From Syntrophaceae bacterium (lineage in GTDB: Bacteria > Desulfobacterota > SM23-61): 62,922 nt of DNA. The notes under the pieces were generated by a model. That model ran no database searches. It had not been told where the DNA came from and saw nothing but the letters and a program-made list of their open reading frames with translations. The translations under genes and the position numbers were made by a program. This document shows positions 4,751-20,295 of this stretch, one piece after another; position 1 is the stretch's first letter, and each line of letters begins with the position of its first letter. The DNA is taken from the NCBI GenBank assembly GCA_013388675.1, contig JACAEW010000175.1, positions 1 through 62,922 on the forward strand, read 5' to 3'.

Positions 4751-4777
4751 GGTGGCCTCCCCATCGATATGGAGTTC

Positions 4778-4806
4778 TTATACAGAACCTGATCAAAAAT
4801 GTCAAG
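4778..4806 (-). promoter_or_regulatory. sigma70 promoter of Rrf2 gene with overlapping putative autoregulatory site
   Basis: TTGACA-17-TATAAG; CCTGAT-N7-GTCAAG resembles the IscR type-1 box. Confidence 0.65.
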
Positions 4807-4814
4807 TTCGAGGT

Positions 4815-5015
4815 TTAATCGGCCACCGTGTACCCGGCTTCCTCCACCGCCTGGCGAACGGCCGCCCGGGATACATTTTGGGTATTTGCAAAGGTCGCCT
4901 CTCCCTTGGCCAGGTCCACTTTCACTTTCTCCAGCCCCGGGATCTTTCCCAGGGCCTTGGTGACCGCCATCACGCAGTGCTGGCAGGTCATCCCTTGGAT
5001 TCTAATCTTTTCCAT
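4815..5015 (-). CDS. copZ: heavy-metal-associated (HMA) copper chaperone, CopZ-like
   Basis: 66 aa, GMTCQHCV motif, AVEEAGY end. Confidence 0.88.
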   Translation of the reverse strand: MEKIRIQGMTCQHCVMAVTKALGKIPGLEKVKVDLAKGEATFANTQNVSRAAVRQAVEEAGYTVAD

Positions 5016-5071
5016 CCTTTTCTCCTTTGCCGGGACAGATCCCGGCTCATGGGAATTTTTTCATGATCTTT

Positions 5072-5551
5072 TCATTTCACATCGTAGTGGATGCCTGCGG
5101 TCCTCTTCTGGTCACCCGTCGTAACGAGAAGGAGGATCTGGTATTTTCCCTTCCCGGCCAAATTGAAGTAGGCCTGATAGCTCTTCATGCCATCCTCATA
5201 CTTGAGGGGTTTAATTTGATCCTTCCCCTTGGGATCGATGACCTTCATGCCGACCTGGGCGTCGATGACTTCCTTGCCCTTCTGATCCTTCAGCGTTACG
5301 CTGATATTGTGGGTGGTATCGGGTTCCAGGTCTTCCTTCATTTTCAACTCCTGGAGCATCTTCTTGTGCTCTTTATTGTTCATGATCGCAAAGGTGATTC
5401 GCATTCCCTCGACCAAAACTTCCCGGGTGTCCATCTTCATCCCATGGCCCTTGGCCCCTCCGCCGTGGACATGTTGCGCCCCGGCTGGGGGAATGAAAAC
5501 CCATGGACCCGCGATCAAGACTGCCAGGAAAACAGACATCGCTTTCTTCAT
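5072..5551 (-). CDS. periplasmic His/Met-rich protein, probably YtkA/Ig-like metal-binding protein
   Basis: Signal peptide, QHVHGGGAKGHGMKM after it, beta-rich C-terminus (HNISVTLKD...DAQVGMKVIDPKG...GKYQI); follows cusA. Confidence 0.7.
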   Translation of the reverse strand: MKKAMSVFLAVLIAGPWVFIPPAGAQHVHGGGAKGHGMKMDTREVLVEGMRITFAIMNNKEHKKMLQELKMKEDLEPDTTHNISVTLKDQKGKEVIDAQVGMKVIDPKGKDQIKPLKYEDGMKSYQAYFNLAGKGKYQILLLVTTGDQKRTAGIHYDVK

Positions 5552-5588
5552 ATTCCCTCCTCTATCTTACCCGCAGCGGGTTTTAAAG

Positions 5589-8500
5589 CTACGATTCAAT
5601 TTCCGGCGGTTTCAGCTTTCCTTTCTTCAAAGCCCGCTCTTTCATCAGGGCAAAGATAACCGGCATGATGACGAGGACCTGGATGGTAGAGGTTACCAAT
5701 CCCCCAATGATGGGGGCGGCGATGGGCTTCATCACATCCGCCCCGACACCCGAGGACCCCATGATCGGGACCAGGGCGATCATGGTCGTCCCGACGGTCA
5801 TCAATTTCGGCCGAAGACGCAGCACGGAGCCTTCCACCGTGGCTTCATGAATATCCTGCCGGGTCACTCCGCCCTTCGCCAGCCGCTGGTTCAACGCCTC
5901 TTTCAAGTAGATGACCATCACCACTCCGGTTTCCACCGCCAACCCGTAAAGGGCGATGTATCCCACCCAGACGGCGACGCTGAAGTTGTAGCCCAGGAGA
6001 TATTGAAGGATGAGCCCCCCGGTCATGGCATAGAGAACGGCGAGCAGGACCAGGATCGATTCCGAAATGGAATGAAAGGTCATAAAGAGAAGGAGGAAAA
6101 TGACAAAGAAAACGACGGGCAAAAGGATTTTCAATCTCTCCTTGGCCCGGAGCTGAAATTCGTACTGGCCGCTCCAGGAGAGCGAATAGCCTGGGGGGAG
6201 CTTCAGTTTTTCCCCGATCACCCGCCTGGCTTCTTCCACGTACCCCCCCATATCCCTTCCCGTTACATCGACATAAACGTAGCCCGTGAGCAGGCCATCT
6301 TCATTCCGGATCATGGCCGGGCCTTCGGTCAGGGTGATGTCCGCGAGCTGTGCCAGGGGAACCTGGGCCCTGGGGCCTGAGCCCCCTCCGATTCCCCGCC
6401 TGTCGCCCATCGCGCTCCCTCTTTCCGCACCGTCCATTCGGAGAGGCACCAGGATCCTCTTGACCTTCTCCAGGTCATCCCGCAGTTCCCGGAGGTAGCG
6501 GATATTCACGGGGTACCGTTCTCGCCCCTCGATTGTCCGGGTTACATTCATTCCTCCCAGAGCCGTCTGAAGGACATCTTGAACATCCCCGACCGTCAGC
6601 CCGTAACGGGCGATTTTATCCCGGTCGATCCTGATGTCGGTGAAATACCCGCCGGTTACCCTCTCCGCATAGACGCTTCTCGTGCCGGCAACCTCCTTTA
6701 AGATCGTTTCGATATGGATGCTCAGTTCCTGGATGGTAGGGAGATCGGAACCCGACACCTTGATTCCCACCGGCGTGCGGACCCCGGTGGTAAGCATATC
6801 GATTCTCGCCCGGATGGGCATGGTCCAGGCATTCTGCAATCCCGGGAATTGCATCTTTCTGTCCATCTCTTCCACCAGCTCTTCGTAAGTGATCGTCCGG
6901 TGCGTTCCCAGGACCTTTCCGGCCGCCGGCCTCATCCACTCCGGCATCCAAGAATAATCCTTCTCCACCTTGCGCCACTCCTCTCTTGGTTTCAGGTGGA
7001 CGGTCGTCTCCATCATGCTGAGGGGGGCCGGGTCGGTGGAAGTCTCCGCCCGTCCGGCTTTCCCGAAAACCGCCTGGACTTCCGGAAAACTTTTCAAAAT
7101 CTTGTCCTGGACGGCCAGGAGCCTTCCCGTCTCGGTAACCGAAATTCCCGGGCTGGTGATGGGCATGTAAAAGATCGTTCCCTCGTAGAGGGCGGGCATG
7201 AATTCACTCCCGATCTTGAAAAAGAGCGGAACGCTCGGGGGAATCACGAGAAAAGCGAGGAGGAGCGAGGTTTTTCGGTATTTCAAGACCCAATGGATCA
7301 CCGGCTCGTAGAACCGCCGGAAAAACGAGGAAACCGGGTTCTCCGCCTCCGGCCGCAGCCGTTTCCCCTTCAGGAACAGCGTCAGCAGGGCGGGGACCAA
7401 GGTGATGGCCAGGATGGAGGAGGCGGCCATGGCGAAAGTCTTGGTGAAGGCCAGGGGCCGGAACATCCTTCCCTCCTGGGCCTCGAGGAGGAAAACGGGA
7501 ATAAAAGAGATGATGATGATCAGCAGGGCAAAGAAGATGCCCCGCCCCACCTGCTGGCAGGACCGGACAACGGTGGAAAAGCTTTTCCTTCGATCTTCTT
7601 CTGTGCCTTCGGCAAGATGACGGTAGCCGTTCTCGACCATGACGATCGAGGCATCCACCATCACCCCGATGGAAAGGGCGATTCCCCCCAGGGACATGAT
7701 GTTGGAAGTCAATTTCAGGTAATACATGGGGATGAAGGAGAGAATCATGGCAATGGGGAGGGCGAAAATGGGGACCAGGGCGGAGCGAAAATGGAGAAGA
7801 AAGACGATAATCACAAGGCTTACGACGATGATTTCCGTGAGGAGGGTCTTCTGGAGATTCTTAATGGAGAGATCGATCAATTCGGAGCGGTCATAAGTCG
7901 GTACGATTTTAATCCCCTTGGGCAGTCCGGGAGCGATCTCTTCGATCTTGGCTTTGACCCGCTTGATTACATTCAGGGCGTTTTCGCCGAAGCGCATGAC
8001 CACGATCCCGCCAGCCACCTCGCCCTGCCCGTTCAGTTCCACGATCCCCCTTCGAATCTCCGGGCCCAAGGTTACGTGGGCGACATCCCGCAAAAGGATG
8101 GGGGTGCCCTGCCAGTTCGTCCCGACAACAATTTTCTCGATATCGGAAACATTTTTGATATACCCCCGCCCTCGCACCATATATTCGCGCCCGCCGAATT
8201 CGAGAAGGCGCCCCTCCACGTCATTGTTCGAGGCGCTGATCCGGGCCATGACCTCCCGGAGGGAAAGGTTGTAGGCGGACATCCGATTGGGGTCAAGGTT
8301 GACCTGGTATTGCTTCACAAAACCGCCCACGCTCGCCACCTCGGCGACCCCTTCCACGCTGGCCAGCGCATAACGAAGGTACCAATCCTGAAGGGTCCTC
8401 AGGTAGGCGAGATCGTGCCGGCCTGTTTCGTCGACGACGGCGTAGGTATAGACCCAGCCGACGCCGGTGGCATCCGGACCGATCACCGGGGTTACGCCCG

Positions 8501-8867
8501 GAGGGAGTTGACCGGTGATCTGCTGCATGTACTCGAGGACTCTCGGCCTCGCCCAGTAGATATCCGTTCCATCCTCGAAAATCACGTAAACGTAGGAAAA
8601 CCCGAAATCGGAAAATCCCCTCACCGTTTTCACCCTGGGCGCGGAAATCAGGGCGCTCACGATGGGATAAGTGACCTGGTCCTCGACCAGGTCGGGGCTT
8701 CTCCCCTCCCACTTCGTATAGACGATCACCTGAACATCGGAGATATCGGGCACGGCGTCGAGAGGGATGTTCCCGACCGCATACACGCCGCCGAGGGTTG
8801 CCAGAAAGATGACAGCAAAGACCAGAAACCGGTTCCTCGCGCAGGCTTCGATAATTCTTTCAATCAT
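5589..8867 (-). CDS. cusA: CusA/CzcA family heavy-metal RND efflux permease (Cu(I)/Ag(I) type)
   Basis: 1092 aa; LDAVPDISDVQV, GPDATGVGW, RLRPKLMT; Met-containing motifs SEFMP, PLSMMET, WTMPIRARIDM equivalent to the CusA Met triad. Confidence 0.95.
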   Translation of the reverse strand: MIERIIEACARNRFLVFAVIFLATLGGVYAVGNIPLDAVPDISDVQVIVYTKWEGRSPDLVEDQVTYPIVSALISAPRVKTVRGFSDFGFSYVYVIFEDGTDIYWARPRVLEYMQQITGQLPPGVTPVIGPDATGVGWVYTYAVVDETGRHDLAYLRTLQDWYLRYALASVEGVAEVASVGGFVKQYQVNLDPNRMSAYNLSLREVMARISASNNDVEGRLLEFGGREYMVRGRGYIKNVSDIEKIVVGTNWQGTPILLRDVAHVTLGPEIRRGIVELNGQGEVAGGIVVMRFGENALNVIKRVKAKIEEIAPGLPKGIKIVPTYDRSELIDLSIKNLQKTLLTEIIVVSLVIIVFLLHFRSALVPIFALPIAMILSFIPMYYLKLTSNIMSLGGIALSIGVMVDASIVMVENGYRHLAEGTEEDRRKSFSTVVRSCQQVGRGIFFALLIIIISFIPVFLLEAQEGRMFRPLAFTKTFAMAASSILAITLVPALLTLFLKGKRLRPEAENPVSSFFRRFYEPVIHWVLKYRKTSLLLAFLVIPPSVPLFFKIGSEFMPALYEGTIFYMPITSPGISVTETGRLLAVQDKILKSFPEVQAVFGKAGRAETSTDPAPLSMMETTVHLKPREEWRKVEKDYSWMPEWMRPAAGKVLGTHRTITYEELVEEMDRKMQFPGLQNAWTMPIRARIDMLTTGVRTPVGIKVSGSDLPTIQELSIHIETILKEVAGTRSVYAERVTGGYFTDIRIDRDKIARYGLTVGDVQDVLQTALGGMNVTRTIEGRERYPVNIRYLRELRDDLEKVKRILVPLRMDGAERGSAMGDRRGIGGGSGPRAQVPLAQLADITLTEGPAMIRNEDGLLTGYVYVDVTGRDMGGYVEEARRVIGEKLKLPPGYSLSWSGQYEFQLRAKERLKILLPVVFFVIFLLLFMTFHSISESILVLLAVLYAMTGGLILQYLLGYNFSVAVWVGYIALYGLAVETGVVMVIYLKEALNQRLAKGGVTRQDIHEATVEGSVLRLRPKLMTVGTTMIALVPIMGSSGVGADVMKPIAAPIIGGLVTSTIQVLVIMPVIFALMKERALKKGKLKPPEIES

Positions 8868-8875
8868 TTGGGTCT

Positions 8876-10102
8876 CTACTTTCCATGGGCCCCGTGGTCC
8901 ATTCCGGGCATGCCCATTCCGGCCGCCGCTTCTTTGAATCTCGACTCGGAGTCGATGAGGAAGTTGGCGCTGGTCACGACCCGTTCTCCTTCGGTAAGGC
9001 CTTTCAAAACGACGTAATAACTCTCGACCTTCGGACCCAGCTGAACTTCCCGAGCCTCGAAGTACCCCGACCCCAGGTCAATGAAGGCAACCTGCCGCAT
9101 CCCGGTATCGATGATGGCTCCCTCGGGCACCGCCAGCTTGGTTCCCAGGGGGACCTTGATCTCCACGTTGGCATACATTTCCGGTTTGAGAAGTCCCCTG
9201 GGGTTAGCGAACTCGAACCTCACCTTGGCCGTGCGGGTCGCTGCGTCCAAATAGGGATAGATATAAATGACTTTCCCCTTGAAAGTCTCTCCGGGATAGT
9301 AGGAAAGCTGAATGGTCCCTTCCTGTCCCGGCCGGATGAGGGGGAGCTCGTATTCATAGATATCCGCATAAAGCCAGACTCCGGAGAGATCGGCCAGCTT
9401 GTAGAGAGCCATGCCCGGGGTGACGTTCATCCCTTGAAAGACGTTTCGTTCCAGCACGACTCCGCTGAAGGGAGAATGGAGGGTGAGGGTTTTGCTGACC
9501 TGGCCCCTTTCCTCCAGGTTCTTGATCTGATCATCGGTGATATCCCAGAGCTTCAAGCGGCGCCTGGCCGATTCCACCAGCGTTTCGCGGCCCCCCAAGG
9601 CTTTGGCCGTCCGCAGGGCAAGGAGATACTCCTCCTGGGCCGAGACCAGGTCGGGACTGTAAATCTTCAAAAGGGGCTCGCCCCGGTTGACGTACCTCCC
9701 GGTGAAATCGACGTAGAGGTCCTCAATCCAGCCGCCGATCTTGGGGGACACCGTGGTCAGTCTCTTTTCGTCGTAATCGATTCTCCCCACGGTGCGGATC
9801 ACCTTGTCCAGCCGCCGCTTCTCCACTTTGCCCATCCTGACACCGATGAGCTGCTGACGCTCGGGAGAGATCTCCACGGCTCCCGCAGGAAGCTCCAGGG
9901 CTTTGCCTTCCTTCTGGATCGCCTCCATGGTGAGGCCTTTCATCGCATCCATCTCCTGCCGGTCGTGGCCTTTAGCGGATTCGGCTTGGGGGGCTTGGAA
10001 CTTCGCCTTCCCCGCAGCGGGGCCGCCCTCCTTGCCTTTGTTGCAGGCGAAGACCAGCACGGCAATCAACAAGACCAGCAACCATCCCGTTCGATTCTTC
10101 AT
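8876..10102 (-). CDS. cusB: CusB-like RND periplasmic adaptor subunit
   Basis: Start MKNRTGW with lipobox-like VFAC; GWIEDLYVDFTG, YSPDLVSAQEEY, NFLIDSES; Met-rich C-terminus. Confidence 0.92.
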   Translation of the reverse strand: MKNRTGWLLVLLIAVLVFACNKGKEGGPAAGKAKFQAPQAESAKGHDRQEMDAMKGLTMEAIQKEGKALELPAGAVEISPERQQLIGVRMGKVEKRRLDKVIRTVGRIDYDEKRLTTVSPKIGGWIEDLYVDFTGRYVNRGEPLLKIYSPDLVSAQEEYLLALRTAKALGGRETLVESARRRLKLWDITDDQIKNLEERGQVSKTLTLHSPFSGVVLERNVFQGMNVTPGMALYKLADLSGVWLYADIYEYELPLIRPGQEGTIQLSYYPGETFKGKVIYIYPYLDAATRTAKVRFEFANPRGLLKPEMYANVEIKVPLGTKLAVPEGAIIDTGMRQVAFIDLGSGYFEAREVQLGPKVESYYVVLKGLTEGERVVTSANFLIDSESRFKEAAAGMGMPGMDHGAHGK

Positions 10103-10188
10103 TTTCCAACCTCTGCCAATCGAGTGCATCGTGAGGGTGAGGAGTGAGAATTTGAATGTTCCAACTGGCCCCTCACGCCTTACGGTTT

Positions 10189-11736
10189 TTATTTCCACGA
10201 CCCTCCCATGACTTCCTCCAGCTCCGCTTGAGCGATCCCCACTTCGCTGCGCCTCAACTCCCGAGCCAGATTGTCGATAAGCCACCCCGAATAGGACATG
10301 ATCACATCGGCAAAGGCTACATTTCCGGTCTCGTAGGCCCGGGTGGAAACTTCCAAGGCGGCCCAGGACAAAACGACCACCCGTTCATTGTAAAGGGCCT
10401 CCTCCCGCCTGGCCCGGTCAAGACGAAACCAGGCCTCCCGCACTTTGGAAATGGTTTCGGCCTCCGCTTTTTTTAGCTCTTCCCGCAGCGCGGCGAGTCT
10501 CTGACGGGTTTCGCGCAGGTAAGCATCCTGGGTTCCGTACCACGGGTTTCGAGGGAGACCGGCCCCGGTAGAAGCCGGGGTCCTGACCGGGAAGGGTTCC
10601 TTCATCCTCATCGTTCCCGTTTGGGCGATGGTCTCATTGGGAAAAAGGGAGAGGTTCAGCGTGTAAAGGGGGTAGATCATGTTTTCGGCCATCTCGATCA
10701 TGCGCTCCATTTTCCCGATCATGGCCCGCATCTCCCTCAATTCCTGCCTTTTCTCCAGGGCGACGGAATATAAACCGTCAAGAGATGGGACTTCCGGAGA
10801 GGGGACGCGGTGTACGGGAGAAGCAACCACGGTCCCGGGCGGCAGGTCGAGGATTTCCAGGATTTTGACTTTCCAGTTCGCCTGTTGTTCGCCGATCGTC
10901 TTCAGCTCTTCCGCCATTTTCTCCCTTTCAATCTGAACCTTGATCAGGTCCTGGAAGCTCGTCTTTCCCGTTTCATAGCGGGTCCTGGCCGCGGATTCCA
11001 GGTGAATGAGGAGGTCGAGCATCTCTGCGGTGATCTTCTGCGCCCGAATGGTGTAAAGGAGATTCCAGTAGGCCTGGCGGGCTTGGGTGAGGGCCATTCT
11101 CCCGGCCATCGCTTTCCGTTCTGTTGCCGCCTTTACTTCCTGCGTCACGACTTGGCCCTTTAAGGCCAGGACCCCGGGGAAGGGAAATTTCCATTCCATG
11201 GATTCCCCCTCCCCGGTCATCGGGCCGATCCCGGTCATCAGGGTTTTCGTGAATGCCGTGTACTGCCTTATGATTTGGTCCAGGTTCGATACCTGGCTGT
11301 AGGCCTCTAAGGAGGCCCGCAGGTTCCTCTCCGCCGCATTCACTCCCGGATTGCGTAACCACGCTAAGATCTCCAAATCCTCAAGGGAAAATTCTTTCCC
11401 CAATATTTCTGCCGCCCAAGAAGGGTCCTTGGCGGCGGGTAGAAGAACGCCGAAGCGCGTGGGATTGGGCCGGTAAAAGCCGTTTTCTTTCTCCGGGGTC
11501 TTAAGGACCTCCTCCCATTTTCTCTTCTTTTCCTGGAGCTTCTGCACTTCTTGGTCAAAGTCCTGGTTCGTTGGATCGGGGGGGATCGAGGGCACCGGAG
11601 TGGGCCTGGAGTACTCTTGATAAAGAGGGGACGGCTTATAGGAGTCCCATCCCTTTCGGAGATCATGGTATCCGCCGCAGGCCTGGATGAAGACCATCAT
11701 TCCCCCGGCCAACAGGAGCCATCCCCCTTTTTTCAT
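10189..11736 (-). CDS. TolC-family outer-membrane efflux protein, lipoprotein with long N-terminal extension
   Basis: Lipobox-like IQAC; FPFPGVLALKG, RYETGKTSFQDL, AYETGNVAFADV OEP-repeat features. Confidence 0.82.
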   Translation of the reverse strand: MKKGGWLLLAGGMMVFIQACGGYHDLRKGWDSYKPSPLYQEYSRPTPVPSIPPDPTNQDFDQEVQKLQEKKRKWEEVLKTPEKENGFYRPNPTRFGVLLPAAKDPSWAAEILGKEFSLEDLEILAWLRNPGVNAAERNLRASLEAYSQVSNLDQIIRQYTAFTKTLMTGIGPMTGEGESMEWKFPFPGVLALKGQVVTQEVKAATERKAMAGRMALTQARQAYWNLLYTIRAQKITAEMLDLLIHLESAARTRYETGKTSFQDLIKVQIEREKMAEELKTIGEQQANWKVKILEILDLPPGTVVASPVHRVPSPEVPSLDGLYSVALEKRQELREMRAMIGKMERMIEMAENMIYPLYTLNLSLFPNETIAQTGTMRMKEPFPVRTPASTGAGLPRNPWYGTQDAYLRETRQRLAALREELKKAEAETISKVREAWFRLDRARREEALYNERVVVLSWAALEVSTRAYETGNVAFADVIMSYSGWLIDNLARELRRSEVGIAQAELEEVMGGSWK

Positions 11737-13076
11737 CGCTCCACCACCCCCGGCGTTCTTCCTGCCTCGTTTTCTTTTTTCTGAGTTAAACTCACGCCGG
11801 AAAGACTCTCAAGCTGGGTCAAATTTCGGCCGTAATCCGCCTTGGCTCTGGCCAGGGACAATTGGAAGTTATAAAAGACGCTTTCCGTTTCGATAAAGTC
11901 AGAAAAACTGCCCTGTTTTTCTCGAAACCACATTTCGGCAATTTCCATGGATCTGGCCGCCTGGGGCAGGAGTTGATCCCGGTAAAGCTGGATCAGTCTC
12001 TCGGAATTCTTCAGGCGAAAATAGGCGTTGCGAATCAGGGCATGGGTCTCGTTGATCTGAGCCGTTTTCATCGCCAGCGCCTTTCGCTCCTCGGCCCGGG
12101 CTTCTTCCTTTCGACCCTTGTTCTTATTGAACCAGAGGGGGATGGTAAGCCCAATTTGGATTCCCAACGTGTCCCGGAATTCTGGAGGGACATTATCCGG
12201 ATTTCCTTTTTCATAGGAAGCTCCCAATTTGAAATTGGGGAGGGATTCATATTTGGCTACGCCCTGCTTGGCTCTCGCTTTATGAATCTCGCTTTCAACC
12301 AGTCGGATCTCTTCCCGATGTTTTCGCGCCAGTTCGTATATCTCTTCGAGCTGGTAAATCAAGGAAGGAAGGGGTTCCGCCTCCAGGAGCCTGATCTCGG
12401 AACCCGGCGGCCGGTTGAGGAGAGAGTTCAATTGGGCCTTTTCCGTTTCCTCCAGCTCCTCCAGAAGAATCGCATCATACTGCAACTGGGCGGCTTGAGA
12501 TTGGGCTTTGACCACGTCGAAATATTGGGCTCGATCCTGGGCATAGGCGGTTTCCCCCACCTTGCGAATGTGTTCCAAAATATCCCGATTCAAGGCCACC
12601 ACTTTTTTTGCCTCTCGAATGTAAAAGAGCTCATAGTAGGACTCCCGAATTCCCACCAGGGTATCCCGCAGCGCCTTATCGAGCCCCAAACGGGCCGTAT
12701 CGATTTCGGCCTTGGCCACTTCTCCCAATCGCGACAGCTTCCCCGGGAAAGGAATCATTTGGGAAACCATCACTTCATACGAGGTCATGAACGGCTTGGG
12801 ATAGGCCGTCAAACCGATTTCCGGGTCGGGATAAGCGGTCTCCACCCGGTATCGTTCAATGGTCCCTTTCCAGGCATGGCGAGCCGATTGAATCAGGGGA
12901 TTGGTTTTGTAGGCATAGGTAAAGAGATCGGACATAGAAGCCCCTTCGATTAATTTCTTTTCCAATTGTTCCAACCCAGCGGATTCCGCCGCCCATCCCG
13001 AAGAAGTAAAGCACCACAAGCCCCAAATCACCATCCATGCCGCCCAAATTGTCCGATGCCCCCTTTGGGCCCTCAT
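11733..13076 (-). CDS. TolC-family outer-membrane efflux protein
   Basis: Signal peptide; YPDPEIG, QMIPFPGKL, IGLTIPLW, two OEP repeats; start uncertain (13076 vs 13172). Confidence 0.88.
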   Translation of the reverse strand: MRAQRGHRTIWAAWMVIWGLWCFTSSGWAAESAGLEQLEKKLIEGASMSDLFTYAYKTNPLIQSARHAWKGTIERYRVETAYPDPEIGLTAYPKPFMTSYEVMVSQMIPFPGKLSRLGEVAKAEIDTARLGLDKALRDTLVGIRESYYELFYIREAKKVVALNRDILEHIRKVGETAYAQDRAQYFDVVKAQSQAAQLQYDAILLEELEETEKAQLNSLLNRPPGSEIRLLEAEPLPSLIYQLEEIYELARKHREEIRLVESEIHKARAKQGVAKYESLPNFKLGASYEKGNPDNVPPEFRDTLGIQIGLTIPLWFNKNKGRKEEARAEERKALAMKTAQINETHALIRNAYFRLKNSERLIQLYRDQLLPQAARSMEIAEMWFREKQGSFSDFIETESVFYNFQLSLARAKADYGRNLTQLESLSGVSLTQKKENEAGRTPGVVER

Positions 13077-13162
13077 CCCTTTCCCCCATTCTTTTGGCAG
13101 ATCCATTCCATCCAGCGTTCTCCGCAACAAATTTGCGGTCCCTGCATTCTTTCCGAGGAAAG

Positions 13163-13969
13163 TTAGACCCATGGATTAATTCCTTTCCCCGAGCGATATG
13201 GGCTGATATTTTCTAGCGGGGGGTGCGGAGCCACCGTTGCCGCTTTCTTATCGCTCTTCTCCAGACCTCGACCGTTTCCCCCTTTCAGCCCATCTGACTC
13301 CTTTCCCGCCAGGAGCCCATCGGATAAGCGGAGGATTCTTTTGGCATACCGGGCGCATTCGGGGTTGTGGGTGACCATGAGGATGGTCATCCCCTCCGAA
13401 TTAAGAGTCCGGAGGAGTTCCATGATCTCCCGGGTGGTCTTGGTGTCCAGGTTTCCGGTGGGCTCATCCGCCAGAAGAATGGGGGGCCGATTTACGATGG
13501 CCCGGGCGATGGCGACCCGTTCCTGTTCCCCCCCGGAAATCTGGCTCGGAAGCCGGGTCCCCTTGCCCCCCAGACCGACCCGCGCCAGGGCTTCTTCCGC
13601 CAGGGTCCACTTCTCCTTTCTCTTCATTTTCAGGGGCGCCAAAGGAAGCATCACGTTTTCCTGAACCGTTAAGTAAGCCACCAGGTGGAAGCTTTGAAAG
13701 ACGAACCCCAGGTGCTTCCTCCTGAAGTCGGCCCTCTCTTCCGAGCCCAAAGAGGTAACATCGATGCCGTTTACCCCGTACCTGCCCGAAGTGGGGGTGT
13801 TGAGAGCTCCCAGCATGGACAGAAGAGTGGATTTCCCCGAACCCGATTCCCCCATGACCGCGATCCATTCGCCCGGGGAAACGGCAAAGCTGATCCCCCG
13901 CACCGCCAGGACCGCAGCCGCTCCCTCGCCGTACTTTTTCACCAGGTTATCTGCTTGAATGATAGCCAT
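13163..13969 (-). CDS. ABC transporter ATP-binding protein (LolD/MacB type)
   Basis: GESGSGKST, ISGGEQER, LLADEPTGNLD, VTH. Confidence 0.95.
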   Translation of the reverse strand: MAIIQADNLVKKYGEGAAAVLAVRGISFAVSPGEWIAVMGESGSGKSTLLSMLGALNTPTSGRYGVNGIDVTSLGSEERADFRRKHLGFVFQSFHLVAYLTVQENVMLPLAPLKMKRKEKWTLAEEALARVGLGGKGTRLPSQISGGEQERVAIARAIVNRPPILLADEPTGNLDTKTTREIMELLRTLNSEGMTILMVTHNPECARYAKRILRLSDGLLAGKESDGLKGGNGRGLEKSDKKAATVAPHPPLENISPYRSGKGINPWV

Positions 13970-13979
13970 TCCCTTCCTC

Positions 13980-15137
13980 CTAAAGGGCCTTCAAAGCTTC
14001 ATTGGGGTCCAGCCGGGCCGCCCATCGGGCAGGATAATAACTGGCGGCAAGGCCCAGAATGATGGCCATCGCCAGGGCGCCCGCGGCCAGCAGGGGGTCC
14101 AAGGGGATCGCCACATGATGGCCGGCACTGAAGAACGGCAGGGCGATCCACGCCGCCCCGAGACCCACTGCGTATCCCAGCAACCCGGACCCTACCGACA
14201 CGATTCCCGCTTCCAGCAGAATGATGCGCATCACATGGCTGCTGCGAAACCCGATGGCCCGGAAGATACCAATTTCGGCAGTCCGTTCCCTCACGCTGCC
14301 CATTAAGGTTACTAAAACCACCAGAGCCCCGACCAAGGCAACCACCGTGGACAGGGCGTAGGCCGCCTTGCGGAAGTGCTCCAGCGTCTCCATCCGCCCC
14401 TGGACGACCTGCTTGATGGCCATCACGTTGGCCCCGGGGATGACCTCGGAAATCTGGCGGACCATCTCCTCAACCGGGCACCCGGCGCAAAGGGCGGTCA
14501 CCTCGGCCATGGAGACCCGTCCCTGCTTACCCAATAGAGACTGGGCCGTGTCCAGGCGGGTGAAAAGAATCTGGTCGTCCTGGGAGCCCGTGGAATCGAG
14601 AAGGCCCGATACCGTCAGTCGTTGCCCCTTGACCTCGATGGGACTGCCCACTTGGAGCCCCAGCTTTTTCGCCGCCTCCGAACCCAGGAGGACGCCGTCC
14701 TTTTCCGGGATCGCGCCCTTGAAGGTCCACCAGGGGCGAAGGTATTGATAGACCTTAAAATCCATGCCCGCAACCATGACCCGGCGGCCGGCCACTTCTG
14801 CGGCCCCCAAAACCATGGGGCCTACTGCGGCCACGTTAGCCGCATTCTGGATCGTACGAATCCGTTCCAGCTCCTCCTGCCGGATCTCCTGCATGTCGAA
14901 AGAAACCCCGCCCAAGGAAAGCCCCCCGTAGGTTAGGGAGAGGTTTTCCGTCTTGGGCACAATCAGTATGTTGGCCCCGTACTCCTCCAATTTCTGATTG
15001 ATGTCCTGGGTCAGGGCTTCCACCAGGCTTAAGAAAGCCACCACCGAGGAAACGCCCACTAGGAGGCCTATAAGAATGAAGGCCGCCTTGGCTTTCCTTC
15101 TTCTTAAATTCTTTACGGCTATATCCCTCAGGGTCAT
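13980..15137 (-). CDS. MacB/FtsX-family ABC permease with periplasmic CxxC
   Basis: One N-terminal TM, periplasmic core, three C-terminal TMs; ERTAEIGIFRAIG, YPARWAARLDP; LCAGCP. Confidence 0.92.
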   Translation of the reverse strand: MTLRDIAVKNLRRRKAKAAFILIGLLVGVSSVVAFLSLVEALTQDINQKLEEYGANILIVPKTENLSLTYGGLSLGGVSFDMQEIRQEELERIRTIQNAANVAAVGPMVLGAAEVAGRRVMVAGMDFKVYQYLRPWWTFKGAIPEKDGVLLGSEAAKKLGLQVGSPIEVKGQRLTVSGLLDSTGSQDDQILFTRLDTAQSLLGKQGRVSMAEVTALCAGCPVEEMVRQISEVIPGANVMAIKQVVQGRMETLEHFRKAAYALSTVVALVGALVVLVTLMGSVRERTAEIGIFRAIGFRSSHVMRIILLEAGIVSVGSGLLGYAVGLGAAWIALPFFSAGHHVAIPLDPLLAAGALAMAIILGLAASYYPARWAARLDPNEALKAL

Positions 15138-15140
15138 TTC

Positions 15141-15629
15141 TCAGCCTTTCTTGGGAAAGTTGAAGTATCTTTTTCCTTCCAGGATGTCTTTCACCTGGAT
15201 CACCACTTTATCTCCCATCAACTCCCGCCTCAACGGTGCCGGGTTGCAACCTCCCCGCAATTCTCCCACGCGGTTCGTGGCGAATCTTCTCCCGCAATTC
15301 ACGCAAATCATGAAGTCCCCTTTTTGCTTGTACCCTTTCCCCTCCGGCCAGCACACATCGCAGGCATCAAAAGCCGCCCGGATCACGCCGTCAGGGCTTT
15401 TCAGGATGAAGTACTTAATGGTGATTCTCTCGCCGGTTTGGTGCTCAAAGAAGCGGGCTTTCCCGTCCTGGAAGGTTTGAACCGGGTAGCTGACCTCGGT
15501 AAGGTTACCGGCCGCTGAAGCCTCCCGGGCCCCCCCATTCCAGAGGGAGCCCGCCAGGATTGCCAAAATGAAGAGAGGGACCCAGACTCCCCTCAGCGCC
15601 TTCCTGTTTCTCATAAAGCCTACCTTCAT
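15141..15629 (-). CDS. DUF2318 (FtrD-like) exported Cys-rich/Fe-S protein
   Basis: AFDACDVC, ICVNCGRRF, GGCNPAPL; N-terminal hydrophobic segment; AGGAGG RBS. Confidence 0.88.
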   Translation of the reverse strand: MKVGFMRNRKALRGVWVPLFILAILAGSLWNGGAREASAAGNLTEVSYPVQTFQDGKARFFEHQTGERITIKYFILKSPDGVIRAAFDACDVCWPEGKGYKQKGDFMICVNCGRRFATNRVGELRGGCNPAPLRRELMGDKVVIQVKDILEGKRYFNFPKKG

Positions 15630-15656
15630 GAATCCATTCCTCCTTTGGTTTTCGGG

Positions 15657-16625
15657 TCAGGAGTTTTCCCGGACCCCTCCATTCTCGTAGGTATAAGATT
15701 TAATCGTTTTTCCGTCTTTTTGGATGTCGATTTGGAGATGGCATCCATAATCGATAACCCGGGCGGTAATCTCTTTTTGCCCGGGGTGATTCTTTAAAAA
15801 ATCTTCGAGGGCCGCCTTTTTGGCTTCTTCTTTCGCAAGGGCCGAATCGCCGCGTGATGAAGGGGGCATCTTACCGCGGCCCTCGCCGGATTTCGGACCG
15901 CAACAGCTTCCCCTGATCGCTCTACCCCAAACCGTTTGCTCGAAGGTTGCGGATACTTCGACCCGGGCATTCCGGCGGGCTTGAACCAACCAGGAATCAG
16001 GCCTTTTCTCGGAGTCGATTTTTTTTGATCCCCTGGCATTTTTTATCGCGTCGATTAAGAGAATAGTTTTGAGCTGATTTTGGAGGTCCTCTTTTCGCCC
16101 TCCGGCCCATTCAAGTTTTTTTAAAAAATCATCCGCCGTCCCAAAAACCTCCCGGGCAACTTTTTCCATCTCCCGCTGGACCCTTTCTTCGGATACCCGG
16201 ACCCCCAGCCGTCGGGCTTCCTGGCCGATAAGTTTTTCGGCGATCAAAACTTCCAGCACCTCTTCCTTCAAATCCTCCAGGATTCTCTTCCCTCTCTCGC
16301 CCGAGAAAACCTTCCTTCCTTGCTGGCGCTCCAGCATGCCCCGAACGCTCCGGAAACGGTCTTCGAATTCGACCTGGAGGATGGCTTCCCCGTTGACAAC
16401 CGCCGCCGGCTTTCTCCCTCCTTCCGCAAAAAGGAACCCCGGCAGGGAAATCCCCCCATGCCATAAAAGCAATCCGGCCAGAAGGAGGAGCACACCCGAG
16501 AAGACAAGGCTGAAGAGCCAAAGGCCTCGGGGCTTGAAGCCTCTCCATTCACGCCGGCACTGGGGGCAATAAATTTCCCCCTCCTCCACCTGCCTTCCGC
16601 AATGTCGACAATCCTGAACCCCCAA
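15657..16625 (-). CDS. membrane protein: N-terminal zinc ribbon, TM, SurA-N-like domain, C-terminal GSCCG / DYGCH domain
   Basis: CRHC-x10-CPQC; TM; AAVVNGEAI...LIAEKLIGQEARRLGVRVSEE; first gene after sigma54 promoter (TTG start). Confidence 0.75.
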   Translation of the reverse strand: MGVQDCRHCGRQVEEGEIYCPQCRREWRGFKPRGLWLFSLVFSGVLLLLAGLLLWHGGISLPGFLFAEGGRKPAAVVNGEAILQVEFEDRFRSVRGMLERQQGRKVFSGERGKRILEDLKEEVLEVLIAEKLIGQEARRLGVRVSEERVQREMEKVAREVFGTADDFLKKLEWAGGRKEDLQNQLKTILLIDAIKNARGSKKIDSEKRPDSWLVQARRNARVEVSATFEQTVWGRAIRGSCCGPKSGEGRGKMPPSSRGDSALAKEEAKKAALEDFLKNHPGQKEITARVIDYGCHLQIDIQKDGKTIKSYTYENGGVRENS

Positions 16626-16658
16626 AAGTCACCCCCGGATAGATTTCCCTCTTCATTC

Positions 16659-16675
16659 AGCAAGGAGGGTGCCAG
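16659..16675 (-). promoter_or_regulatory. sigma54 (-24/-12) promoter of the metal-export operon
   Basis: CTGGCACCCTCCTTGCT (GG-N10-GC) about 35 bp upstream of 16625. Confidence 0.85.
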
Positions 16676-16761
16676 TGCGCGAGCATAGAGGTTAATCCCT
16701 TAATATTTTTAAAGATTTTTATTGGGCCTGGGTATCTGCGGAGGTTCAGCGCCGATTTGGA

Positions 16762-16820
16762 TGCGATTTTTTTTCGCAGGCTAAGTTCATAGGACAGGGG
16801 GATTGGGAATTTTTCCCGCA
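16762..16820. promoter_or_regulatory. putative enhancer (UAS) sites for the NtrC-family regulator
   Basis: TGCGA-N7-TCGCA (16762-16778) and TGGGA-N7-CCGCA (16804-16820), 42 bp apart; AT-rich IHF-like stretch near 16693-16720. Confidence 0.55.
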
Positions 16821-16871
16821 GGAATCGATTGGATGGGATTTTTATCGAAAATACACGATCCGGGAGAAAGA

Positions 16872-18248
16872 CTATTTCATCGGCGGGGATTCCATGCCAT
16901 ATTCCTTAAGCTTGATCTGGAGGGTCCGGCGATTGATTCCCAGTATTTCGGCGGCACGGGAACGATTCCCGCCCGTGTCTTCCAGCGTCTTGAGGATGAG
17001 GGCCCTTTCAACCTCCCCCAGACTGATATTCAAAGGGAGATGGATCCCGGATTCCTCTTTCCCGGGGGAAAGGGCCTGCACCTGGGGAGGAAGGTCCACG
17101 GGGGCGATGACCTCCCCCCGCGACATAATGACCGCCCGTTCCATGCAGTTTTCCAGCTCGCGGATATTGCCGGGCCAATCGTATCGCACCAGCAGGTCGA
17201 GGGCCCGGGGAGAAATTCCCTTTAGCTCCTTCTTATTTTTCTCCCGGTACAGGCTTAAAAAGTGGGCCGCCAAAGCCGGGATATCATCCCTTCGGGCCCG
17301 GAGGGGAGGAAGCAGGACGGGAACGACATTGAGCCGGTAATAGAGGTCTTCCCGGAAGCGCCCTTCCTTAACTTCCCTGCCCAGGTCTTTGTTCGTCGCC
17401 GCAATCACTCGAACATCCACTTTGACTGTTCGGGTCCCGCCCAGGAGTTCGAACTCCTTCTCCTGCAGGACCCGGAGGATCTTGGTTTGGGTGGTAGGGC
17501 TCATCTCTCCCACTTCGTCGAGAAAAATCGTTCCCCGATGGGCGAGCTGGAACCTCCCTTCCCTCCGGCTGATGGCCCCGGTGAAGGCGCCCCTCTCATG
17601 GCCAAAAAGCTCGCTTTCCAGGAGGGTTTCCGGCAGGGCCGCGCAGGAAACCTTGATGAAAGGCTGGCTGGCCCGCCGGCTGTTATGATGGATCGAATTG
17701 GCCACCAATTCTTTCCCCGTTCCGCTTTCCCCCAGGATCAGGACCGTGGCATCGGTGGGAGAGACCTGGGCCAGCAGGTCGAAGAGCTCTTTCATCTTCT
17801 GCCCCCTGCCGATGATCCTGGAGAAGTCGAAACGGTCACCCAGCCGTTCTTTCAGAACCAGGTTTTCCTCCCTTAGATGGTAGTGCTCCAGGGCCTTTTC
17901 GATGAGGATTTTCAGCTCGTCCAGGTCCAGCGGTTTGGTCAAATATTCGAAAGCCCCGGCCTTGAGCGCCTCCACCGCCGTTTTTACCGAGGCATAAGCG
18001 GTCATCATCAAAACGGGAACGAAGGGGCTTATTTTTCGGATTTCGGTCAGCGTTTCAATCCCGTCCATGGTGGTCATGCGGATGTCCAAAAGGACCAGGT
18101 CGAAAACCTCCTGTTCAACGGCCCGGACCGCCTCCGGACCGTCCGATGCCTCCGCAACCTCATAGCCCTCGTCCTGCAGGACCGCGCGAAGCATCATCCG
18201 GTGGCTTGCCTCGTCATCCACAATCAAGATCCTGATTACTCGGTTCAT
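16872..18248 (-). CDS. sigma54-dependent response regulator (NtrC/ZraR/AtoC family)
   Basis: REC (ILIVDDE, LLDIRM), GESGTGKE, GAFTGA, WPGNIREL, Fis HTH. Confidence 0.96.
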   Translation of the reverse strand: MNRVIRILIVDDEASHRMMLRAVLQDEGYEVAEASDGPEAVRAVEQEVFDLVLLDIRMTTMDGIETLTEIRKISPFVPVLMMTAYASVKTAVEALKAGAFEYLTKPLDLDELKILIEKALEHYHLREENLVLKERLGDRFDFSRIIGRGQKMKELFDLLAQVSPTDATVLILGESGTGKELVANSIHHNSRRASQPFIKVSCAALPETLLESELFGHERGAFTGAISRREGRFQLAHRGTIFLDEVGEMSPTTQTKILRVLQEKEFELLGGTRTVKVDVRVIAATNKDLGREVKEGRFREDLYYRLNVVPVLLPPLRARRDDIPALAAHFLSLYREKNKKELKGISPRALDLLVRYDWPGNIRELENCMERAVIMSRGEVIAPVDLPPQVQALSPGKEESGIHLPLNISLGEVERALILKTLEDTGGNRSRAAEILGINRRTLQIKLKEYGMESPPMK

Positions 18249-18312
18249 CGCCGCTCTCCAAGGAAAAAAATCGCTTCCTCCTTCGATCTACAACCCGGCA
18301 GGTTTTTTTCCA

Positions 18313-20058
18313 TTAGAATGGCAGGGTCACGAAAAAGGTCGTCCCCGCCCCTTCCTGGCTTTCCACCCGGATTCCTCCCCCATGACTTTCCACGATCTGA
18401 TGAACATTGGCCAATCCCAAACCTGTGCCTTTCCTTTTGGTGCTGAAAAAAGGCTCAAAGACCTTTTCCAGGTCCTCCCGGGGGATTCCCCGTCCCGTGT
18501 CGGCAATGGACACCTGAACCCGCTTTTGTCCCTCTTCCTCAACCCGGTTCATCGTGATCCGAAGGCTGCCCCCTGGGTCCATGGATTCCAGGGCATTCAA
18601 CAACAAGTTGAGAAAAGCCTGGGAGAACTGGTCCCGATCGATCGGAACAAGAGGGAGACCGGGTTCTAAGATTTTTTCCACCCTCACCTTCTTGGCGGTC
18701 AACTCCGGCTGCAGGAGGTTCAGGGAAAGGTCCAGGATGCTCTCCAGCGAATGCGGCTCCCGACGGGGCTCTTTGGGCCGGGCGAAATCCAGCAGTTCGG
18801 TGATGACCCGGTTCAGCCGGTCCACCTCTTTGATCATGATGGATGCGTATTCTTGGTCCTTTTCCTGCCCCTTGAAGCGTTGGTGGAAGAACTGAGCAAA
18901 TCCCCGGATGGAACTCAGGGGGTTTCGGATTTCGTGGGCCACGCCGGCAGCCAGCCGGCCCAGGGAGGCCAATCGCTCCCCCCGCCGGACTCTTTCCTGA
19001 AGCTCCCGAATCTCCCGCAGGTCGCGCAGCAGCAGGACCGATCCCAGCTCCTGTCCGTTCTCGTCTTTCAGGGGGGCCGCGCTCAGGCTGAGGGGAATGA
19101 GCTTTCCCGAAGGCTGCTTCACGTCCATATCCCGGTCGCGGACGATCCCCCCGGGCTTTTCCCCTTGGAGTAGATATTCCACCTTAGGCCCCATGACCTC
19201 GGCGATTCCCCGGCCTTTGAATTCCCTTTCCGCCCCCCCCAAAAGATCCGCCGCCCTTCGGTTCAGGGTCACGATTCTTTTCTGGCCGTCTATGGAAATC
19301 AGGGCATCGGCCATGCTTTCCACAACGTTCTCCGTGTAGGTTTTCATCCGCGCCAGGGAGCGATCCACCAAATAATAATTCTGCACAATAAAGATGAAAT
19401 AAAGCGCTCCGCCCCCCAGGATCACCAGGATCCCCCCCATGAGAAGGGCATGATGAATATCCTGTTGCCGCGCCCCTTCGAAGGCTCCCGGTCGAAGGCC
19501 GACCAAGATCACTTTGTCCTTCGCCCAATCCTGAAGGGGCTCTTCCCGGGGACCCGCTTTTTCCTCCCCCTCCCGAATCAGGGCCAGGGGGTTCCGGTAG
19601 GCAAGCGGACGAAAAGGCGTGATCACCTCGAAGGTCCTTTCCCCCCCGGCGGCCTGCCGATAGCGGGTGATCAGCCCCTTCTCCCTCAACAAAAGAACCA
19701 GGGAGGAGGCGTCCCCAACTCTCTCGGCCGTTTCCCCGGAAAGACCCGAGGCCGCAACTTCTCCATGGCCGTCAAAGAGAAGGATGCGGGCAACCGCGGG
19801 CTCCCGTGAAAGCTCTTCCACGATCCTCCGGATTCGGGACACATCCGGGCGCGAAGAAGGCGAATCCGCCCGCGCTCCAGCTTCCACGGCGCGGATGATT
19901 ACCAAGCCCTCCCGCAAGAGAGAGTTTTCCGCTCTTTCCCGGTCCCGGTCGATATTCCGGTATGTGGAAATGGCAATGACCACCAGCAGGGTAAGCACCG
20001 TGGCCACAATGATCAGCGCGGGCAGGTAAAGGGATTTATAGGGTCGTCCCGTTTTCAT
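18313..20058 (-). CDS. membrane sensor histidine kinase with PAS domain (ZraS-like)
   Basis: Two TMs around a periplasmic domain, [28 protein letters not shown]. Confidence 0.93.
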
Positions 20059-20138
20059 TCGGAAACCCTTCTGGGAAATCGCTCCGACCGATTATCCCCA
20101 TCCCCTTGTGGGCGGATTTCTTTCATACGGCCAAATCC

Positions 20139-20295
20139 GATGACTGCATAAAAAGTAAAGAATACTCCCTCCCCTTTGATGGGAGAAGGTTGGGGGGGTG
20201 ATGAACAGAAGAATTTCAATGCCCTATTAACCCCCCTCCCCTTCATCCCCTTCCACCAGGAGAGGGAAAATTTTCTATTAACGAAAGGGTCAAAT
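20139..20295. repeat. degenerate non-autonomous intergenic palindromic element (MITE/REP-like)
   Basis: CCCTCCCCTTTGATGGGAGAAGG...CCCCCTCCCCTTCATCCCCTTCCACCAGGAGAGGG nested hairpins; GATGACTGCATAAAAAGT left end. Confidence 0.4.

Follow-up and report, generated by a model that had tools for sequence, protein, structure and literature searches.

A candidate copper and silver defence operon of a Syntrophaceae bacterium joins a cysteine-rich type VII ABC module to a CusBA-type pump

Results

A ten-gene cluster made of two cassettes

Here we have analysed a 62,922-nucleotide (nt) stretch of DNA from a Syntrophaceae bacterium (assembly GCA_013388675.1, contig JACAEW010000175.1; hereafter the window) and describe a ten-gene cluster, g1 to g10, on its minus strand (4815-16625), with kinase and regulator genes upstream. 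Two cassettes, each of which is also found without the other, are fused in this cluster: cassette A (g1-g4), with genes for a DUF2318 protein and an ATP-binding cassette (ABC) permease and ATPase, and cassette B (g5-g10), with genes for a CusBA-type pump. As the original prediction had stated from the sequence alone, the ten genes are co-oriented and closely spaced (gaps of -10 to +86 nt, computed from coordinates), follow one well-formed sigma54 promoter and lie downstream of an NtrC-family two-component system. Pfam and NCBIfam scans of 13 consecutive open reading frames (ORFs) of the cluster bear out the predicted gene identities with two amendments, namely that g9 is CrdA/YtkA-like rather than CusF and that an eleventh gene, for an Rrf2-type regulator, follows the ten. 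In the order of reading, the features are:

18313-20058, minus strand: sensor histidine kinase with two transmembrane (TM) segments, PAS, HisKA and HATPase_c domains; AtoS/ZraS-like
16872-18248, minus strand: NtrC-family sigma54-dependent response regulator with REC, AAA+ and Fis-type helix-turn-helix domains (Sigma54_activat, E 6e-72)
16762-16780 and 16804-16822, minus strand: two A-rich direct repeats 42 nt apart, candidate activator-binding sites
16659-16674, minus strand: sigma54 (-24/-12) promoter, TGGCACCCTCCTTGCT, 33 nt upstream of the g1 start codon
15657-16625, minus strand: g1, SurA_N_2 (E 7e-15) and Zn_Ribbon_1 (E 8e-4, below cut-off)
15141-15629, minus strand: g2, DUF2318/FtrD-like protein of 162 amino acids (aa) (PF10080, E 2e-30)
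13980-15137, minus strand: g3, ABC permease (MacB_PCD and FtsX)
13163-13969, minus strand: g4, LolD/MacB-NBD-like ABC ATPase (ABC_tran, E 8e-35) with a C-terminal tail of about 45 aa
11733-13172, minus strand: g5, outer membrane factor OEPa (PF02321, 132 bits)
10189-11736, minus strand: g6, outer membrane factor OEPb (PF02321, 38.6 bits against a cut-off of 22), with a lipoprotein-type signal (...IQAC)
8876-10285, minus strand: g7, CusB-type membrane fusion protein (HlyD_D23, E 6e-85; HlyD_D4, E 1.5e-8)
5589-8867, minus strand: g8, CusA-type HME-RND pump (TIGR00914, CusA/CzcA, 1125 bits against a cut-off of 701)
5072-5551, minus strand: g9, secreted CrdA/YtkA-like protein with a His/Met-rich N-terminus and a weak YtkA/FixH match (YtkA, E 2e-4, below cut-off)
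4815-5015, minus strand: g10, CopZ-type cytoplasmic metallochaperone with MTCQHC (HMA, E 3e-15; TIGR00003, 62.4 bits against a cut-off of 62)

In the NCBIfam scan g4 scored 226 bits with LolD, below the cut-off. For two genes the longest-ORF start probably lies too far upstream, and the true starts are probably M33 at 13076 for g5 and M62 at 10102 for g7; read from M62, g7 has a lipobox (LVFAC) as well as a Met/His-rich C-terminal tail.

The junction of the ABC and OEP genes, where the two cassettes meet, is not an assembly artefact. It is bridged by a 4380-nt contig of public DNA run X1 (spanning 10614-14993) and by a contig of run X3 from a different study (12829-13321), and its gene order matches that of orthologous loci. 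Both sets of contigs also contain a joint at 13380-13499, inside g4, that skips 110-118 nt and whose shorter side has 21 letters; a conserved ABC motif from another organism is its likeliest cause. The source genome (353 contigs, estimated 100% complete) has one DUF2318 gene and one CusA-type gene and encodes CopA-type ATPases elsewhere.

The front module recurs with copper genes

PF10080 was located in 68 of 301 genomes of the phylum, and 74 neighbourhoods from the 67 other genomes were compared with the window; a second scan aligned the permease against named genome contigs and contributed 47 loci, with about 120 loci sampled overall. Window proteins were mapped onto the neighbourhoods by tblastn, on which the linkage counts rest, and longest-ORF gene calls in the GC-rich loci are unreliable (antisense ORFs, Pro/Arg-rich artefacts). 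Contigs related to the window come from Desulfobacterota (Syntrophobacterales, Desulfobacterales and 'Deltaproteobacteria' metagenome-assembled genomes). Most of the 74 neighbourhoods hold a conserved DUF2318-FtsX-ABC unit in fixed order on one strand: 50 have a single permease, seven are Fet-like (two permeases, long DUF2318), and the remainder have DUF2318 either by itself or among other genes. Over all sampled loci, this triad was seen in Desulfobacterota, Acidobacteriota, Bacteroidota, Chloroflexi, Actinomycetota, Bacillota and a methanogen-type archaeon.

The DUF2318/ABC block is linked to cus genes in other genomes repeatedly, and to this extent the original prediction is supported. CusB/CusA genes lie within the fetched stretch in 15 of the 50 single-permease loci, in five GTDB families (f1, f22, f51, f57 and f63; loci L037, L041, L045, L047, L052, L054, L055, L063, L065, L067, L069, L073, L076, L079 and L085), where we would estimate about 1% by chance (20 kb in roughly 3.5 Mb). 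The second scan found them in 6 of 47 loci (L111, L114, L116, L119, L125 and L148), with cus upstream of the module in L116 and with L125 belonging to the Pyrinomonadaceae of the Acidobacteriota. In three more genomes the module and Cus blocks are about 8 to 17 kb apart, and at L048 a DUF2318 gene lacking ABC genes stands beside a regulator-OEP-CusBA block. The linked loci are variously ordered (module-OEP-CusBA, module-kinase-regulator-OEP-CusBA, OEP-CusBA-HMA-module and module-CusBA), and such differences between lineages suggest that the association arose more than once and was not inherited from a single accident. Only in its own family is the full arrangement of the window found, in which g1 leads and the kinase and regulator genes precede it (L047, L052 and L063; partly L054 and L085). 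One genome, G197, carries the whole DUF2318-FtsX-ABC-OEP-CusB-CusA cluster twice, on two contigs and with near-identical maps (L069 and L073).

The genes that accompany the module elsewhere point to copper as well. Among the 72 genes scanned directly upstream of DUF2318, 25 encode an HMA domain, two a CopA fragment and one a multicopper oxidase. The 25 HMA partners are mostly membrane-anchored periplasmic proteins, seven of them with a SurA_N-like domain in addition, and five of the 72 combine a Zn-ribbon with SurA_N as g1 does; usually, the triad comes after an anchored HMA or SurA_N protein that bears a CC motif. Further afield, the module is found near CopA (YHS and HMA) and a DsbA-like protein in the archaeal locus, near DUF3347 and a multicopper oxidase in a Bacteroidota locus, and near a multicopper oxidase and an OEP in a Blastocatellia genome. 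In L041 the gene after CusA encodes a NosL homologue, in L045 this place is taken by a member of the same cluster, and SCO1 lies close to DUF2318 in L097, with a cluster mate directly downstream of DUF2318 in L096. At the level of whole genomes, CusA/CzcA-type matches occur in 51 of 67 DUF2318-positive and 88 of 233 DUF2318-negative genomes, relatives among them not being independent.

Two other kinds of company were seen. Of 95 genes upstream of DUF2318, 17 encode small secreted Cys-rich proteins of 129-210 aa with 6-12 Cys, CC motifs and a common C-terminal tail (P-x-Y-L-x4-S-L-L-[C/I]) but no Pfam match (L044, L046, L049, L053, L058, L060, L061, L064, L080, L095, L099, L101, L104, L106, L108, L109 and L112); their genes lie 170-410 nt upstream of DUF2318, the window has no such gene, and they may be partners or substrates of the module. 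In monoderm loci the same module is wired to different regulators, with a BlaI/CopY-family repressor and a BlaR1-like M56 peptidase directly upstream of DUF2318-FtsX-ABC in L137 and L143, and only an M48 peptidase and a Zn-ribbon protein upstream in L130.

Cysteines and predicted folds of the front module

The periplasmic cysteines that the original prediction had singled out proved to be conserved in all three proteins concerned. By its sequence, g1 would consist of a cytoplasmic Zn-ribbon, one TM segment, a periplasmic SurA_N-like chaperone domain, a CC motif and a small C-terminal domain. The CC motif directly after the SurA_N domain is common to g1-type and HMA-type proteins (9 of 10 aligned), and the g1-type proteins add a C-terminal domain with a conserved GCH; for that of g1 no usable structural neighbour was found in the Atlas.

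The g2 protein has an N-terminal anchor or signal followed by a periplasmic domain with the five cysteines C90, C93, C109, C112 and C128, which are spaced CxxC-x15-CxxC-x15-C and invariant in 65 of 65 DUF2318 sequences. This domain models as a Sec-exported, all-cysteine Rieske fold. The predicted structure (predicted local distance difference test, pLDDT, 85 overall and about 95 over residues 45-160) was best matched in VIA-align to the T4moC ferredoxin (Z 9.6, root-mean-square deviation 3.2, 101 residues aligned, out of 109), and the top 45 rows were all Rieske proteins; Foldseek gave no row at E<=0.001, but listed nothing except Rieske proteins and nitrite-reductase small subunits, which are related to them. 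A sequence search against chains of the Protein Data Bank returned only chance RING-finger rows (E ~1). The two ligand loops of Rieske proteins are, we assume, 19 residues apart, as are those of DUF2318. Unlike the CxH...CxxH of Rieske [2Fe-2S] ferredoxins, however, DUF2318 has CxxC...CxxC, with no His at the C90-C93/C109-C112 positions and with a fifth invariant Cys. None of the 65 DUF2318 proteins carries a Tat motif, and export looks Sec-type, which would make export of a pre-assembled Fe-S cluster unlikely; we favour a thiolate metal site or a disulfide relay over such a cluster.

The g3 permease is of type VII (MacB/LolC-like), with four TM segments and a periplasmic domain (model pLDDT 82; Foldseek matches to LolCDE, through LolE, and to MacB at E ~1e-17). 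In the model its periplasmic C217-x-x-C220-P falls between a strand (210-215) and a helix (222-232). This CxxC, part of the motif EVAALCxxCP, never varies among the single-type permeases of the unbiased sample (48 of 48) and is absent from Fet-type permease pairs. The motif provides a clear sequence marker for the subfamily. We also considered a cryptic HMA domain at the CxxC loop and dropped the idea, as a profile comparison of the permease family with HMA proteins gave a probability of 0.2%; of this idea only the local strand-CxxC-helix arrangement is left. A complex prediction for permease residues 41-256 with DUF2318 residues 45-162 (score 0.00, mark 0.32) was counted neither for nor against binding. 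As a separate observation on DUF2318, a 1132-aa 'eukprot' transcriptome protein (P0004) joins an ABM domain to a PF10080 domain 62% identical to that of the window and is probably a bacterial contaminant or a mis-joined transcript.

With the type VII systems MacAB-TolC, LolCDE, HrtBA, FtsEX and YbbAP the module shares the four TM helices and the periplasmic Porter/Sabre-type domain of g3, and with LolCDE an ATPase encoded as a separate gene. It differs from them in having no MacA-type adaptor of its own, an invariant periplasmic CxxC and a constant Cys-rich, Rieske-fold partner. The comparison with MacAB-TolC in particular ends at the adaptor, since the MacA model reaches just 46.5 bits (cut-off 342) and the sole adaptor of the operon is CusB-type, and at the ATPase, which is not fused to the permease. 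No CusB-like adaptor and no OEP were found at stand-alone module loci by tblastn with the window proteins.

A CusCBA-type pump with paired outer membrane factors

Genes g5 to g10 look like a complete, self-sufficient tripartite pump of the CusCBA type for Cu(I)/Ag(I), and this is the ordinary half of the operon. The pump protein g8 scores 1030 bits with E. coli CusA and 540 bits with the zinc pump ZneA, and has Met at all three positions aligned to the three-Met Cu(I) site of CusA (phmmer against chain 3t51_A; residues we take to be M573, M623 and M672). The adaptor g7 has the HlyD_D23 and HlyD_D4 domains of CusB, although it reaches only 154 bits with the CusB subfamily model NF007303 against a cut-off of 390. 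Its tail is Met/His-rich (8876-8920, ...GMGMPGMDHGAHGK), and g9 opens after its signal peptide with HVHGGGAKGHGMKM (5440-5480), both motifs being of a soft-metal type.

Compared with E. coli CusCFBA, with which it shares the CusA-type RND pump, the three-Met site, the CusB-type adaptor and outer membrane factors, the window has two outer membrane factor paralogues instead of one CusC, a CrdA/YtkA-like protein instead of CusF and a sigma54/NtrC-type regulator instead of the OmpR-type CusRS, and here CopZ and the four-gene ABC module share the operon. CusF and CusRS are accessory features, so the pump core still qualifies as CusCBA-type. No match to the CusF family was found among the 13 proteins scanned, and g9 probably takes its place, since it is secreted, His/Met-rich and CrdA/YtkA-like (its Atlas neighbours are clusters named 'copper resistance determinant, CrdA family' and YtkA, at TM-scores 0.60/0.72) and has homologues after CusA in relatives (L047, L052, L054, L183-185 and L191). 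The Helicobacter pylori CrdA-CrdB-CzcB-CzcA system presumably offers a parallel, its HME-RND pump being encoded together with a small secreted CrdA/YtkA-like copper protein in the manner of g8 and g9, although gene order, regulator, the paired outer membrane factors and the ABC module set the window apart and the Pfam YtkA match of g9 is below cut-off.

The two outer membrane factors are old paralogues (24% identity), of which one carries a signal-peptidase-I-type signal and the other a lipobox. Among the 301 genomes of the phylum, 20 encode an OEPb orthologue, and all six further OEPb loci that were fetched lie in an OEPa-OEPb-CusB-CusA cassette, a conserved four-gene unit seen in several families (window 10189-13172 for the pair; L191, L193 and L196-L198). 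It had been proposed that the two TolC-like proteins serve two export routes, and one of them for the ABC transporter and one for the RND pump would be the obvious assignment. That assignment is not borne out, given the occurrence of the pair with CusBA but no nearby DUF2318 module (L193, L196, L197 and L198) and CusB being the sole membrane-fusion/adaptor protein of the operon; module-plus-Cus loci with a single OEP are, moreover, common. L193 is a complete single-contig genome with no PF10080 match, and the genomes of L196 and L197 have a DUF2318 module on another contig. The pair rather suggests a hetero-oligomeric or alternative exit duct of the Cus pump, which is a simpler idea than two routes.

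Promoter, regulators and transcript end

TGGCACCCTCCTTGCT is the sole zero-mismatch match to TGGCAC-N5-TTGCW in the 62.9-kb window, in agreement with the single promoter predicted, while matches with up to two mismatches are at chance level there (16 found, 18 expected). No internal sigma54 site was found between the cassettes on the minus strand of the window at up to two mismatches. In four of four aligned orthologous upstream regions, otherwise 55% identical, the TGGCA and TTGC of the promoter are invariant and the core of the upstream repeats, TG.GAAAAAAA..GCA, is kept. Across relatives, 10 of 38 scanned loci have a sigma54 promoter, with no more than one mismatch, 48-92 nt ahead of the gene that opens the module, and a sigma54 regulator lies within the fetched stretch of 13 of 50 module loci in the phylum sample and 12 of 47 in the second scan. 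Kinase orthologues (59-69% identity) occupy the same position in L052, L063 and L085.

Kinase and regulator share their domain architecture with ZraSR and AtoSC, which are also their best NCBIfam matches, although all scores are below the equivalog cut-offs (AtoS 353 and ZraS 327 bits for the kinase; AtoC 566 bits, cut-off 714, and ZraR 516 bits, cut-off 760, for the regulator). The first gene to be switched on, g1, encodes a periplasmic chaperone-like protein, an analogy to what we take to be the role of ZraP.

Beyond g10, two further features bear on where the transcript ends:

4286-4750, minus strand: Rrf2/IscR-like regulator (Rrf2, E 3e-38), 64 nt after the CopZ gene
4061-4091, minus strand: intrinsic-terminator-like hairpin with a 12-bp stem and a T run

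A scan of 4000-20400 found no minus-strand terminator between the CopZ and Rrf2 genes, and the first strong one is the hairpin at 4091-4061, whose stem of 12 pairs is the longest among the minus-strand terminator-like sites of that interval; the scan overall is at chance level (26 found, 24 expected). Because the first strong terminator comes after it, the Rrf2/IscR-like gene may be the eleventh of the transcript. Its product carries three clustered Cys, and a homocysteine-biosynthesis (HcyBio) gene follows at 2682-3872. Rrf2 and HcyBio genes also flank the module in loci L091-L093 of family f12, with Rrf2 downstream of the module in L091 and L093, both of which lack Cus genes in the fetched stretch, and so the Cus cassette of the window looks inserted between module and Rrf2.

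Discussion

Gram-negative copper efflux is thought to need only the proton-driven CusCBA and the P-type ATPase CopA. We propose that the operon described here is a copper/silver envelope-defence operon in which two fused cassettes are combined and the front module handles copper bound to thiols on the outer side of the inner membrane, a proposal that we consider evenly poised between right and wrong. In this proposal a ZraSR/AtoSC-like two-component system would switch the operon on via sigma54. Cassette A would contribute a type VII 'mechanotransmission' engine bearing a CxxC, together with the Rieske-fold DUF2318 protein and an anchored, SurA_N-like chaperone with a CC motif; cassette B would contribute a CusCBA-type pump with two outer membrane factors, a CrdA/YtkA-like carrier in place of CusF, and CopZ. 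The thiol sites of permease, DUF2318 and g1 would capture Cu(I)/Ag(I) or copper-damaged proteins outside the inner membrane, and ATP hydrolysis in the cytoplasm would bring about periplasmic conformational changes that strip the metal or pass it on, after which the Cus pump would expel it, a hand-over to g9, CusB or CusA being plausible. Metal binding, the direction of transfer, contact between module and Cus pump, and co-transcription are all steps that we infer.

In all known type VII relatives (MacB, LolCDE, FtsEX and HrtBA), cytoplasmic ATP hydrolysis drives periplasmic movements, and in NosDFY-NosL an ABC ATPase powers the periplasmic hand-over of Cu(I) from a chaperone during maturation of nitrous oxide reductase. 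The likeness to NosDFY-NosL is one of concept only, that of an ATP-powered periplasmic Cu(I) hand-over: NosY belongs to the ABC-2 type permeases, NosD is a beta-helix protein, the two systems are unrelated in sequence, and the operon lacks nos genes. More generally, the DUF2318/CxxC-permease/ABC triad could be a widespread, undescribed ATP-driven class that extracts or hands over thiol-bound Cu(I) at the outer surface of the cytoplasmic membrane, an extension that we regard as doubtful for now. A literature search, with supplements outside its scope, found no description of the single-permease CxxC subfamily or of a link between module and cus, and no characterised system matching the arrangement, as had been anticipated. 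What is new here is the front module as a variant of type VII ABC systems with a consistent copper-context signature. In favour of the copper reading, DUF2318 membrane proteins figure among the genes under copper control in a metagenomic study of the CsoR regulon (PMC4938975). A Geobacter cobalt paper mentions, in the part available, only a plain czcABC operon (PMC7726332).

Several observations weigh against this proposal. The whole case for a copper function of module A comes from gene context, and in 25 of the 50 sampled module loci the fetched stretch has no Cus, HMA or YtkA gene, and in family f12 the module is surrounded by genes of sulfur metabolism and tRNA thiolation. The CusA orthologues nearest in sequence (79-81% identity; L183-L185) are in plain OEP-CusB-CusA-YtkA operons with no adjacent module, so the pump does not need the module. 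In L065 an exact sigma54 promoter also precedes OEPa, and the cassettes therefore have separate promoters in some relatives. Together with the 35 of 50 single-permease loci that lack Cus genes in the fetched stretch, these cases speak against an obligate coupling of module and cus. At the protein level, the periplasmic part of the kinase reads as having no Cys and few His or Met, the permease has no profile similarity to HMA, and the Rieske fold of DUF2318 and the strand-CxxC-helix of the permease fit electron or disulfide chemistry equally. We know of no type VII ABC system that handles a free metal ion, a literature search having found none. Finally, the only studied relatives of the module, FetA-D, act in iron uptake according to the text available to us (PMC10783030).

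These relatives deserve a closer comparison. As far as the accessible sections of the reports go, FetA-D of the C. jejuni fetMP-fetABCDEF locus are needed under iron limitation, their biochemical role being unknown (PMC10783030, PMC6083913), and the FetABCD core is made of DUF2318, FtsX and ABC ATPase proteins (PMC10783030). Both systems pair a DUF2318 protein having two CxxC motifs and a fifth Cys with adjoining genes for MacB-type permease(s) and an ABC ATPase. Where FetA has eight TM segments, DUF2318 and YHS, however, g2 is a 162-aa protein with a single anchor; where Fet has two permeases (FetB and FetC) lacking the CxxC, the window has one with an invariant CxxC; and in place of Fur-regulated iron uptake with FetM/P19 and thioredoxins, there is a copper-efflux context with neither. 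The 2018 Fet paper, in the part available, places DUF2318 genes 'almost always' in Fet-like clusters, whereas only 7 of 74 loci in the present Desulfobacterota sample are Fet-like. A role of module A as a Fet/P19-type iron-uptake accessory, or as a Bce-like 'flux sensor' reporting to the adjacent kinase, would find some footing in this shared core, in the FTR1 fusions that make up 18 of 21 matches to longer DUF2318 proteins (none has FtsX or HMA, in a word-limited search in which absence is weak), and in the sigma54 regulators near the module in both samples. FTR1 (PF03239) and P19 (PF10634) have no match, though, in the whole source genome; the window has one permease and not two, with the CxxC that Fet-type permeases lack; its DUF2318 is short, single-anchored and free of any FTR1 fusion; and the kinase is of the PAS kind rather than an intramembrane sensor of the BceS type. 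We consider this role highly unlikely, and a Fet-type iron function in this operon unlikely.

The chief rival to the copper-handling proposal, and one that the data cannot separate from it, is that module A is a periplasmic redox or thiol-maintenance system with DUF2318 as a Rieske-like electron or disulfide relay, in which the ABC engine supplies or gates reducing power, as has been proposed for FetBCD. Such a system might keep envelope cysteines reduced, repair copper mis-oxidation or convert Cu(II) to Cu(I) for CusA. The Rieske fold itself (with Rieske proteins in every one of the top 45 rows), the CxxC-x15-CxxC-x15-C spacing, whose equivalent the Fet authors read, in the text available, as Fe-S-like or as redox CxxC pairs (PMC6083913, PMC10783030), and the modelled placement of the permease CxxC at a helix N-terminus, as in thioredoxin-type sites, all speak for it, as do thiol-redox partners at other loci (DsbA-like in L144, CcmH-like in L117, HMA-DsbD_2 in L094) and the fit of the SurA_N chaperone domain of g1 to protein repair. 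We nevertheless rate it as rather unlikely: the lack of Tat signals in DUF2318 argues against a pre-assembled Fe-S cluster, type VII ABC systems are not known to carry reductant from one side of the membrane to the other, genes of the thioredoxin or CcdA/DsbD type are absent from the operon, and the HMA domains of 25 of 72 partner proteins point to metal binding. Decidedly unlikely, in our estimate, is that the cassettes are merely co-regulated neighbours, their adjacency reflecting a shared regulon or a chance fusion in this lineage and no shared pathway, while module A answers the same envelope stress by handling another substrate, for which a secreted Cys-rich peptide, a lipoprotein and a toxic compound embedded in the membrane are candidates. 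CusBA linkage that recurs with varied gene orders, across five or more families and in another phylum, speaks against this, as do the HMA, CopA, multicopper oxidase, NosL and SCO1 neighbours that all point to copper, even though most single-permease loci lack Cus genes in the fetched stretch, small secreted Cys-rich proteins (17 of 95 upstream genes) are possible substrates, the cus block of L065 has its own exact sigma54 promoter, in f12 the Cus operon (CusA at 79-81% identity) is either on another contig than the module or some 14 kb from it, and the monoderm loci place the module beside BlaI/BlaR1-like genes with no pump.

If module A does handle thiol-bound copper, an ATP-driven, cysteine-based periplasmic module recurring with copper genes would add a third kind of player to CusCBA and CopA, possibly most relevant in anaerobic, sulfidic habitats, given the very tight binding of Cu(I) to thiols there. 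DUF2318, which elsewhere is known from nothing but the unexplained FetA-D, would thereby gain a function that can be put to the test. The conserved pair of outer membrane factor genes raises, for its part, the question of hetero-oligomeric exit ducts. Were the triad to prove a class of its own, it would represent the first metal-ion job for type VII ABC transporters; by homology, FetABCD of Campylobacter and other pathogens might then serve the P19 copper site rather than export reductant.

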